This document shows, piece after piece, positions 59,101-62,100 of a stretch of DNA of 64,000 nt. A program made the position numbers. This DNA comes from Escherichia coli O157:H7 (GTDB lineage: Bacteria > Pseudomonadota > Gammaproteobacteria > Enterobacterales > Enterobacteriaceae). The first letter of the stretch is position 1. Each line of letters opens with the position of its first letter. The DNA lies in NCBI RefSeq assembly GCF_013167455.1, contig NZ_CP038328.1; one strand, written 5' to 3'.

Positions 59101-62100
59101 GCTTACGACCAGCGGCAACATCAGCACGCAGAGTTTCATTTTCAGCTCTCGCATCGGCTAATTCCCTCGAGTATTTTGCATCGAGCGCAGCAACATCACG
59201 CTGGCGCACCTGCATGTCAGTAATGGTGGCATTCGCCTGTTCCAGCTCTCTGGCTTTTTTATCGCGCTGCGCTTTGTAGGTGAGCGCGTTGTCACGGTAA
59301 TGGTTTGTTGCCAGCCACAGCGCACCACAGCCAACCGCCATGACAATAATCACCACACACAGAACACGGTTCATCTCTCTTTCACCCCACCAGTCCCGAT
59401 AACGTCAGGACTCGCCAGGCGGTGGAAAAGAAAATGGCAACCAGCATGACTAAAAATGAAATGCCGACAAGTACACAGAGGCTCTTCACCAGCGTTATGA
59501 GTTTATCTGATATCATTAGCCACCCCATCAATCCGCCTTTGTTATTTTCCCTTTGCCTGTATCAGCCAGGACAAAATCAATCAGCATATTCGCTTCATTT
59601 ACCAGCGTACGGATTTTTGATACATGCGCGGCTTTAACCTGTTTCCACTCATTCAGCCCGGTAGCAAACACACTGGCAATGTTTTTATCCCGTTTCATGT
59701 CAGCACAAGCCTGGTTGAGTTCTTCCATCACGCTCATTTTACGGGGATTAACGACAAAACCCTTCGTCCAGTACTCGTAAAGAACATCGTCGCACTCTTC
59801 CTGATACCGGATGACCTTATCGCGGATTTCGGGTTTTACTTTGTTGGGATTAATGGTTTGTAGCCAGCCGGCAAGTTTTCGAAGTGGCATGGACACCATA
59901 TTGCGTTGTTTCCCATCCTCAGCAACCATAACGATTTCCGTTATAGTTGACGCAAAACGCTGTCTTAACTTAGCCAACTGTGATTGCCAGGCCAGCCCCA
60001 TCCCCGCAACGACAGGTTTCATGGGAACGTATGGTTCGCCATTATGGTTAACTACATAAAGAGAGTTGCCGTGAAACGGCACGGCCATCATATTCATCGG
60101 TTATTTCCTTTTAGTGATGAACCTTGTCTCACAGGAATCCAGCCCACAGAAAGGCACCGACAGCCAAACCGGTATCCTCAAGGGTCATCCTGAAAGGTTC
60201 TGTGTTGTGAGATGCGCGTGAGATGCGCAGAAATGACAAAGGCATCATTACGGTGCCTGAGTGTTAAACAACTGTTTTGACTTTATTCACTTACATTTTG
60301 CCAATTTGCAGGATTTCGTGTTATCCGTCCATGTAAGCAAACCTCATTTTTCAGCAAAATATTCTGCTTATCTGTCGATTCCCCAGCACGCCAGCGCGCT
60401 CTCCTGGTCACGACGGGATACCTGACCGTAACAGTTATTTGAGCGAATACGGCAGTCCCTGCCACCGTCCTTAATCCACCAGCGAATCGCTTCGCAGGCA
60501 CCTTTTCGATCTCCTGCATTAATCCGTCTGTAAAACGTCGACGGGAAACACTTACCGGGGCCAATGTTGTACGGACAGAATGACGCAATCCCCGCTTTCT
60601 GGGGTTCGGTCAGTGGCACTCTGATGTTTTTCTCCACCCATGCCAGCGCCTTATCACGCTCAATGGCGTTAACCCGGTCGCATTTTTCCTTCGACAGCTT
60701 CATGCCAGGAATAACAGGCTTACCATCCACCCGGGTGGCTCCACGGCAGATGGTCCAGATACCCGCACCATCACGGTATGCTGTGGTGTGGTTACCTTCC
60801 TTTTCATCCAGAAACTGGTCGAGGATTTCAGGCGCAGACGCCCCTGCACCAATCAGCGCCAGAACGGCAGCCGACAGGCCGTATCTGATTTTTGCGTTCA
60901 TGGATATTTATCAGGGTTTATCGATTTCAAATCCCTGGATATGTTAAGTCTTCAGGCCAGCGGTGGAGTCTTCAGAGAACCCGTAATTATTCCCGGTAGT
61001 TTTCCTCTGTAGGTTATCAACACATCCTGCGCCTCTAAAATTACGGGACGCTTTTCCGGTAACGGACCATCCCCTTCACATAACCCGGCAGCAACATCCA
61101 TGAAAAACTGCTTCGCCTGCTTTTTCGCCTCAGCTTCGTAAAACTCCAGCGTGGCACCTTCAGTACGGTCAAGACTAATCGCCACATCTGGCAACAACAG
61201 TGACGGATACCCACCAATTTCCAGTGCCACAGTAACAGTAATCTTATCCGGGTAATTATTTATCCCTTTAACAACCAGTTCGTATTTTTTCTTCATCGCT
61301 TTACTCTCCCCGCGCCGCCTTACGACGGTCCTCTCTGATTTTGAAATACAGGTTAGTCAGATACGTCAGCAGGCCAAACAGCAGACTCCCCAGCACACCT
61401 ATCGCCACCCACTGGGACGGAGAGACTTTGTCCAGCAGCTGCAGTAACCAGTATCCCGTCCCCACCGCTGACGTGGTGTATGACACACCCGTTGTGATTT
61501 TTTCCATCTGGTACATACCCCGTCTCCCGCAATCCGGAAGCTCACAACAACAGGAGGGGCATCAGCTCACACCGACAGCCCCTGCGTATGGTTACATCAT
61601 CATTTCGCCGCCAGGCTGAGGCTCACTGCTACCGTCAGGCTGAGACACAACGCCATCTGAAACAGCACTGTCACCCGCGCCGTCTTCAGGCTCAGGAGCA
61701 GCCGGTCCCCCCAGCAGCTCATCCAGAATGGCATCCACTTCAGCATCAAGACGCGCCTCAAGATTCTGGCGGAGTTGCTGTTTCAGTGCGCTTCTGACTT
61801 CTTCAGAGCGCAGGACGTCCTTCACTGCTTCAGCAGTGACCAGAGATTTTATTTCTGACATGGGATTTTCTCGTTGAAAGGTGTTGTTAAGAAAGTTGCT
61901 ACGAAATGAGAGGCTCTTCGGGTTTTGTTCCGGCTGACTGGCTGGCGCTGATTTTTTCCGCCGCCGCGGCATCAATCTTTTTGCGTATATAGTTCCGGAT
62001 AACCTTATACCCGCCACTTACCAGATATAACGTGCACACCACCGTGCAGAAATACAATAAAATAAGCTGTACAAATCTCATTATCCCTCCCGGTTATTGA

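Follow-up and report, generated by a model that had tools for sequence, protein, structure and literature searches.

Accessory genes and a candidate regulatory leader in the phage-21-type lysis cassette of the Escherichia coli O157:H7 prophage Sp6

The window analysed here is a stretch of 64,000 nucleotides (nt) from E. coli O157:H7 (contig NZ_CP038328.1), and the subject of this work is the lysis cassette of the lambdoid prophage Sp6 contained in it, together with the genes inserted into that cassette. The cassette is of the phage-21 type, with a pinholin-type holin S, a signal-arrest-release (SAR) endolysin R, and the spanins Rz and Rz1. The finding as such is a known and widely annotated arrangement, in which the two additional larger genes belong to known families of unassigned function, and the leader preceding one of them is the sole element here that may be new. 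The features are listed below with their positions in the window (aa, amino acids; ORF, open reading frame; E, expectation value).

61301..61516, minus strand: S, class II (phage 21 type) holin, 71 aa; PF04971 (Phage_holin_2_1, P21 holin S), E 1e-32; ECs_1530, S lysis protein
60952..61296, minus strand: YdfR/DUF1327-family gene, 114 aa; PF07041, E 1.7e-46; ECs_1531, annotated 'YdfR family protein' or hypothetical
60368..60901, minus strand: R, lysozyme-type endolysin with an N-terminal SAR-like segment, 177 aa; PF00959 (Phage_lysozyme), E 1.5e-24; ECs_1532
Between R and the 189-aa ORF, minus strand: R-to-ant gap, 270 nt, with a conserved structured leader
60231..60257, minus strand: weak terminator-like hairpin, GGCACCGTAATGATGCC, with a T-rich tail after it
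60098..60229, minus strand: structured leader of the ant-like gene, with the box TGCGCATCTCACGCGCA at 60213-60229
59528..60097, minus strand: 'Ant', a Bro-network protein, 189 aa, with P22_AR_N at residues 5-113 and ORF11CD3 at residues 122-164
59382..59528, minus strand: hydrophobic ORF, 48 aa (147-nt gene), ECs_5713, annotated hypothetical
58907..59374, minus strand: Rz i-spanin, 155 aa; PF03245 (Phage_lysis), E 1.5e-39; ECs_1534
58948..59154, minus strand: Rz1 o-spanin lipoprotein, inside Rz in another frame; PF06085, E 6.9e-21; ECs_1535, lipoprotein precursor

The matches to PF04971, PF00959, PF03245, and PF06085 all exceed the Pfam family cut-offs and, together with the order and strand of the genes, uphold the canonical holin, SAR endolysin, and Rz/Rz1 cassette that an initial sequence-only reading of this DNA had described. 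That reading had also placed a 114-aa ORF between holin and endolysin and a 189-aa ORF between endolysin and Rz. Their coordinates and lengths turn out to be exact, both are co-oriented with the lysis genes, and both are real genes rather than chance ORFs (PF07041 with E 1.7e-46 for the former; PF10547 with E 1.4e-45 and PF10549 with E 5.5e-6 for the latter). The 48-aa ORF had been overlooked, as had the leader. The translation of R shows a Gly/Ala-rich hydrophobic segment at its N-terminus, and the SAR behaviour of R and the formation of pinholes by S are predicted. Endolysins of the R kind in Shiga toxin (Stx) phages have been described as SAR endolysins, and the SAR/pinholin assignment has been made for such Stx-phage families (PMC8136144).

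The arrangement has long been known, and both extra genes have been annotated in Stx phages for decades. Positions 58800-61600 of the window show 100% identity with EDL933 and with prophage Sp6 of the O157:H7 strain Sakai, with the same coding sequences annotated, and at least 80% of the 2.8-kb cassette is present in 568 of 5426 complete E. coli genomes. The same gene order is annotated in BP-4795, YYZ-2008, Stx2a_WGPS2, and many Stx1a and Stx2a phages.

The additional genes constitute two accessory insertions of lower guanine-plus-cytosine (GC) content, three genes together, which are widespread in Stx phages. The GC fractions of S, R, and Rz are 0.542, 0.549, and 0.551, respectively, compared to 0.470 for the 114-aa gene, 0.437 for the R-ant gap, 0.463 for ant, and 0.483 for the 48-aa ORF. 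The first insertion is the YdfR/DUF1327 gene, 4 nt after the S stop codon. The second fills the junction between R and Rz and consists of the weak hairpin, a leader of ~135 nt, the 189-aa gene, and the overlapping 48-aa membrane ORF. Each insertion can be missing from related phages: in PA2 (933W type), which has no ydfR, R begins 4 nt after S and is followed by ant, while Stx2c_2409, which has no ant, shows S-ydfR-R, a short spacer, a different small membrane ORF, and then Rz. Both insertions would be passengers (morons) of the late operon rather than lysis proteins.

The ATG of the 48-aa ORF overlaps the ant stop codon (TGATG), and the ORF ends 7 nt before Rz. It corresponds to phrog_4906 (E 5.4e-30), to which no function is assigned, and it travels with ant. 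An intact copy is found in 276 phage records, in 28 of them at only 60-80% identity. At that spot the Stx2c phages without ant carry another small membrane ORF (L009, about 2299-2400, minus strand).

The sequence-only reading had proposed that the inserted genes are expressed late, with lysis. A crude consensus scan detected no sigma-70-like promoter on the gene strand in the 58.5-62.3 kb region or in the HK639 leader, a non-canonical promoter still being possible. For the 114-aa gene, co-expression with S on the late transcript is plausible, because its start lies only 4 nt after the S stop codon. For the 189-aa gene the proposal is too simple, because a weak terminator-like hairpin and a leader that pairs with the Shine-Dalgarno sequence precede it; the translation of this gene is probably gated separately from late transcription.

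The 114-aa gene had been taken as unknown, which needs to be revised, as it belongs to the YdfR/DUF1327 family (PF07041, 156.8 bits against a cut-off of 25) and is placed like ydfR in the K-12 prophage Qin. A GGAG precedes its start. The protein is 99% identical in H-19B and BP-4795 and shares 47% identity with K-12 YdfR over residues 1-74. The AlphaFold2 model has three strands and a helix in residues 1-73 (predicted local distance difference test, pLDDT, 72-89) and low confidence for residues 74-114. The family is very small: a word-indexed search gave 282 matches, every named one in Escherichia or Shigella, and an exhaustive profile search of 1.84 billion representative proteins gave only 93. 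Neither the YdfR-family protein nor the 189-aa protein had a meaningful match in a sequence search of the PDB, NCBIfam had no match for ydfR, ant, the 48-aa ORF, S, or Rz, and no PADLOC defence model was matched.

Experimental information exists for the K-12 homologue. A bacterial two-hybrid assay shows residues 1-72 of K-12 YdfR to interact with residues 1-597 of RNase E, Strep-tagged YdfR carries RNase E 1-598 as well as DNase-resistant nucleic acid (RNA) with it on purification, and overproduction of YdfR changes few transcripts (PMC13232886, published in 2026). By analogy, the YdfR-family protein of Sp6 would be a product of the same Q-antiterminated late transcript as S and R and, like K-12 YdfR, may bind RNA and/or RNase E's catalytic domain, modulating RNA turnover late in infection.

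Distant stand-alone DUF1327 homologues of 72-76 aa reside in tail clusters of the lambda-like kind, where they follow a gpI-like gene or stand between genes resembling gpM and gpL; the domain is therefore a mobile late-operon passenger and not lysis-specific. The 76-aa homologues at L142 1636-1866 and L143 511-741 are each followed by a small ORF on the opposite strand.

These homologues bear on an alternative in which the inserted genes are lysis regulators, affecting the timing or localisation of holin and endolysin or the action of the spanins, which would explain their place in the cassette. The start of ydfR 4 nt after the S stop codon fits such a role, as does the location of the 48-aa membrane ORF immediately before Rz, a spot taken by another small membrane ORF in Stx2c phages that have no ant; in addition, K-12 ydfR is among the envelope-integrity genes of an earlier genome-wide screen cited by PMC13232886. 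However, the translations of the YdfR-family and 189-aa proteins contain no hydrophobic stretch of membrane-spanning length, DUF1327 homologues occur in tail clusters, related cassettes do without one or the other insert, and the module of leader plus cargo is also found after Rz or elsewhere with unrelated cargo, HNH nucleases included. We consider a role in regulating lysis improbable.

The 189-aa protein is a member of the Bro-N/KilA-N network. Its two Pfam domains, P22_AR_N (PF10547, E 1.4e-45) and ORF11CD3 (PF10549, E 5.5e-6), are among the ten Pfam families of this network (PMC10111431), and the modelled N-domain has a KilA-N/APSES-like fold. In the model, residues 11-110 are confident (pLDDT 84-92), while the C-terminus forms long helices of lower confidence. 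A Foldseek comparison with viral models matched Ant-N, Bro-N, KilA-N, and "repressor domain" proteins, and the modelled fold of the N-domain is of the KilA-N/APSES/Bro-N DNA-binding type. The combination of P22_AR_N and ORF11CD3 is common across the Enterobacterales, with 2581 matches, the best 120 of which all have both domains, and P22-like Ant and a second gene of phage 1717 join the N-domain to other C-termini. A 100% identical protein in VT2-Sakai carries the record label "similar to antirepressor of bacteriophage P22"; our literature search found no study on the lysis-cassette ant gene itself.

The antirepressor-like character noted in the sequence-only reading is borne out as far as P22_AR_N is concerned, which the protein shares with P22 Ant, with ~50% identity between residues 1-126 of the 189-aa protein and the N-terminal part of the Ant proteins in P22-like phages. 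It is not borne out beyond that domain: Pfam finds ORF11CD3 alone after residue 113, with P22_AR_C absent. The prophage also has a separate locus that resembles immI:

42098..41220, minus strand: protein with Bro-N and P22_AR_C, 292 aa (Pfam)
42100-42166, plus strand: sar antisense RNA (Rfam, 66.7 bits)
42621..42875, plus strand: Arc-like ribbon-helix-helix gene

Here the sar RNA is antisense to the 5' end of the 292-aa gene, and the whole immI-like region (41220-42875) lies among tail genes. The 292-aa and 189-aa proteins of Sp6 share no significant similarity, and Rfam gives no match in the 58.5-62.2 kb region, which speaks against sar control of the lysis locus. The "antirepressor" label is weak because only the N-terminal domain of P22 Ant is present, the fold is of the DNA-binding type, and the prophage has this separate sar-controlled gene, the 292-aa product of which is the better candidate for a true antirepressor.

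We have also considered the possibility that the 189-aa protein is a true antirepressor after all, made late from pR' and binding CI/C2-type repressors of co-resident prophages, which would lead to their induction. Besides the ~50% identity to P22-like Ant in residues 1-126, it can be adduced that O157 genomes contain many lambdoid prophages, the cassette query matching 10-14 places per genome, and that Gifsy prophages are coordinated by trans-acting antirepressors (PMC3121763). Among Stx-phage Ant proteins, an effect has been measured only for that of phi24B, the deletion of which lowers the output of a pR' reporter to 27-56% of wild type; it lies upstream of qut and resembles P22 Ant in its C-terminal 104 residues, with 82% identity (PMC3064807). 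The phi24B Ant is thus of the C-domain type and is not a lysis-cassette gene. This difference counts against the alternative, as do the lack of P22_AR_C, the presence in Sp6 of its own sar-controlled gene with Bro-N and P22_AR_C, the modelled DNA-binding type of the N-domain, and the leader, which speaks for tight translational restraint. A true antirepressor is, on this evidence, unlikely. We favour for the 189-aa protein, instead of P22-type antirepression, the role of a putative DNA-binding regulator from the Rha/Roi/KilA class, which would most likely act in dealings with other phages, prophages, or satellites in a polylysogenic host rather than in lysis.

The R-ant gap is a mosaic: its R-proximal part is common to phages without ant, while the last ~135 nt, up to the ant ATG, recur in conserved form ahead of various genes. 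Scanning IMG/VR for the pattern gave 120 stretches with this leader, from which 54 unique variants were aligned. Two helices, P1 and P2, are supported by covariation. P1 pairs 60217-60223 with 60127-60133 (minus strand), that is, the UCNCACG of the box with UGUGN'GA ~95 nt downstream. Its variable pair is U:A in 22 variants, G:C in 21, A:U in 9, and unpaired in 2, one exception being an apparent recombinant; the three alleles are all found within one P2 version. P2, the anti-Shine-Dalgarno helix, pairs 60179-60198 with 60107-60126 (minus strand), so that ACCUUUCAG and ~11 further nt are complementary to 20 nt ending in the Shine-Dalgarno AAAGG. The free energy of the P2 duplex is -19 to -27 kcal/mol (z -3.5 to -6 relative to shuffled 3' strands), and the helix is within the minimum-free-energy fold of the Sp6 leader. 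The AAAGG is paired in 53 of 53 variants, five P2 positions are altered on both sides, and complementarity is kept in all of the at least five P2 sequence versions. Between them, the two helices take up the 27 nt that lead to the Shine-Dalgarno of the 189-aa gene, the latter included.

In the MAFFT alignment, the paired fraction of cells is 89.7%, compared to 85.4 ± 0.4% in shuffles; 0 of 500 shuffles attain as high a fraction, and shifting the partners against each other by one to three columns leaves only 31-51% of the cells paired. It should be mentioned that P2 of the type-B leaders is misregistered by one column here, which makes many cells count as unpaired, and P2 was therefore re-anchored on the Shine-Dalgarno. 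The G-U pairs are compatible with the coding strand only.

Searches of Rfam 15 gave no family over the leader, with E up to 5 for the window region and up to 1 for the leaders of six other loci, and the Rfam covariance models of C4, isrK, and sar did not match it either.

The same data speak to whether the spacer between R and ant is a regulatory RNA at all, or instead a DNA-level recombination linker of morons or the gene of a small peptide (MTLEDTGLAVGAFLWAGFL). A mosaic boundary common to different cargo genes would be expected of a linker, the apparent recombinant L080 joins the 5' half of one type to the 3' half of another, the folding energy of the leader is unexceptional, and some records have a hypothetical protein annotated over the spacer. 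However, indels and a stop codon interrupt the reading frame of the peptide in leaders of the PA2/PhiR5_1 type, on the basis of which we rejected the small ORF. Moreover, P1 pairing is kept in 52 of 54 variants through three alleles, all three of which are represented within a single P2 version, the P2 versions all remain complementary, and the G-U pairs fit the coding strand only. A linker or a peptide gene is thus an unlikely explanation of the spacer.

In the proposal that we prefer, the self-complementary leader would keep the translation of the 189-aa gene low. The UCNCACG in the hairpin loop and the downstream block (CCUUUCAG and ~11 nt) would pair with a continuous 27 nt ending in the Shine-Dalgarno, giving a pseudoknot or a two-state switch; because P1 and P2 cross and their 3' strands are contiguous, they would need to coexist as a pseudoknot or form in alternative folds. 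Translation would rise only upon opening or cleavage of the leader, by such means as RNase III, RNase E, a trans-acting RNA or protein, or altered folding.

Leaders of this kind precede a variety of cargo genes. They are found before a KilA-N gene after Rz in Salmonella phage SE1, before Rha (Phage_pRha) genes after the spanins in HK639 and VSe13, before an ANT/KilAC gene between R and Rz in PhiR5_1, and before a KilA-N+P63C gene after the tail genes in PDP110P1. Further cargo comprises HNH-type genes and one 491-aa protein. For 123 loci the flanking sequence was long enough to identify the nearest same-strand gene upstream, which is that of an endolysin or a spanin in ~106. Most copies have a strong GC hairpin and a T-run directly before the box TGCGCaTCnCACGCGC; the stem is perfect in 933W-type phages (GGCACC/GGTGCC), and in HK639 the hairpin is annotated as a terminator. 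Upstream of holin genes, we noted matches to Rfam STnc100 in HK639 (L010 35-240) and in an IMG/VR contig (L075 2898-3081 and 5265-5464).

The leader is present, unannotated, in 879 of 5426 complete E. coli genomes (about 16%), with a median of 3 and up to 10 copies. A scan of species-representative genomes gave only six matches, among which that in Rhizobium is a chance match. A complete leader occurs outside the Enterobacterales in Halomonas halocynthiae (L134 1800-2035), with a fifth compensated P2 version. A 392-bp contig labelled 'Xanthomonas pisi' (L138) has a leader and ant start identical to those of E. coli Stx phages and is probably a contamination. We tentatively regard the leader as an undescribed class of self-antisense cis-regulatory RNA that gates late-region cargo (Ant-N, Rha, KilA-N, ANT, HNH) in enterobacterial temperate phages, an assignment that we hold to be possible but somewhat short of an even chance. 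The three covarying P1 alleles could provide specificity among the up to ten copies per O157 genome.

A connection can be drawn to the classical gene rha. P22 rha is the next gene after gene 15/Rz1 and has a terminator and a diverged version of the leader in front of it. The stretch beginning at the annotated P22 rha GTG start (NC_002371.2 position 39575; L140 1960-2150) runs through the diverged leader. Starting from the ATG 69 nt downstream (L140 2145), one obtains MNELIANHDFDFRQLV, in agreement with the N-termini of other Rha proteins, and comparison with these suggests that the P22 rha start is probably misannotated. Because the diverged leader and terminator precede P22 rha beside the lysis genes, the Stx-phage "ant" can be seen as the positional and regulatory counterpart of rha, with another DNA-binding domain. 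The roi gene of HK022 is comparable to rha, being a Bro-network gene whose product blocks phage growth in mutants lacking integration host factor (IHF). The IHF-site consensus (WATCAANNNNTTR) was not seen in the leader when checked by eye. [quoted passage not shown] The leader could be what has been lacking to explain why rha of P22 and phi80 is silent unless IHF is absent.

What we infer about the functions of the YdfR-family, 189-aa, and 48-aa proteins can be joined into one picture, in which a YdfR-family protein, produced along with S and R, has RNA or RNase E as its target, and a DNA-binding 189-aa protein, restrained by its leader, has a role in the dealings between phage, prophages, and satellites. 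We give this picture as a whole a probability of roughly 55%. Several points weigh against it. The link to RNase E comes from a 47%-identical homologue with a different C-terminal part, which was overproduced and changed few transcripts. DNA binding by the P22_AR_N domain is deduced from the fold. The folding energy of the leader is no better than that of shuffled sequences (z -0.44), and the case for its structure therefore rests on the covariation, which is drawn from a handful of lineages; the crossing of P1 and P2, finally, fits a pseudoknot and alternative folds alike.

In related Stx phages, the cassette genes share a Q-dependent late transcription unit with stx, and any effect on RNA stability, lysis, or prophage cross-talk could alter the release of toxin and phage by enterohaemorrhagic E. 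coli. As to annotation, "antirepressor" should not be read as the function of the 189-aa gene. If confirmed, the leader would give a handle on how phages silence potentially harmful Bro-network genes, the classical rha included, and would add an unannotated RNA element to the share of complete E. coli genomes given above.

Some observations concern the surroundings of the cassette. The minus strand upstream of S encodes DUF826 and DUF1378 proteins and an esterase of the SASA family (window 61592-62081 and 62229-63998), the last with the annotation 9-O-acetyl-N-acetylneuraminic acid deacetylase. Stx phages usually carry these genes downstream of stx, and no stx is present in Sp6 at this site upstream of S. 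Directly after Rz is ECs_1536, an ORF of 74-80 aa (window 58659-58901, minus strand) with no match in Pfam; lambda has bor there, on the other strand. A copy of the leader core with one mismatch (AGGACCTTTCAG) is located inside this ORF at 58752-58763. Adjoining the tail genes, a 782-aa ORF (window 37777-40125, minus strand) contains leucine-rich and pentapeptide-like repeats and, judged by these, looks like a prophage-borne secreted effector.

It remains to compare the locus with known systems. The order S-(ydfR)-R-ant-small ORF-Rz/Rz1 is identical or nearly so in VT2-Sakai/Sp5, VT1-Sakai, BP-4795, YYZ-2008, H-19B, and the 933W-type PA2; there is no real difference from the lysis regions of Stx phages and O157 prophages, and the Sp6 locus is a member of this group. 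The K-12 Qin prophage (essQ-ydfR-rrrQ-rzpQ) has a DUF1327 gene in the same position, between an S21-type holin and a lysozyme. In contrast to K-12 YdfR, the C-terminal part of the O157 form is unrelated and has a conserved PEKRPVILEAQ...GSLKTPP tail, and Qin has no ant module between R and Rz.

The lambdoid morons, such as bor and lom of lambda, are likewise extra genes of deviant GC between conserved late genes, with a presence that varies among relatives, and the Sp6 insertions share with them both the deviant composition and the variable presence. They differ from morons with their own promoter upstream and terminator downstream, in that no promoter was detected and the hairpin stands upstream rather than downstream of the gene.

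In P1 immI, an upstream complement to the ribosome-binding region restrains the translation of an ant-type gene. The c4 RNA of P1 and P7, acting on icd-ant, and the sar RNA of P22 are similar to the Sp6 leader in having such an upstream complement. Unlike c4 and sar, the complement is within the leader itself, and a processed trans-acting RNA is not part of the Sp6 picture. With P22 Ant from immI, the 189-aa protein has P22_AR_N in common; it differs in having ORF11CD3 instead of P22_AR_C, and the lysis locus has no sar/Arc/Mnt context. The rha genes, finally, are also beside lysis genes in the late region, and the leader precedes Phage_pRha genes too. The two differ in the DNA-binding domain, which is P22_AR_N in one case and Phage_pRha in the other, and in location, the Stx-phage module being between R and Rz, while rha comes after Rz.

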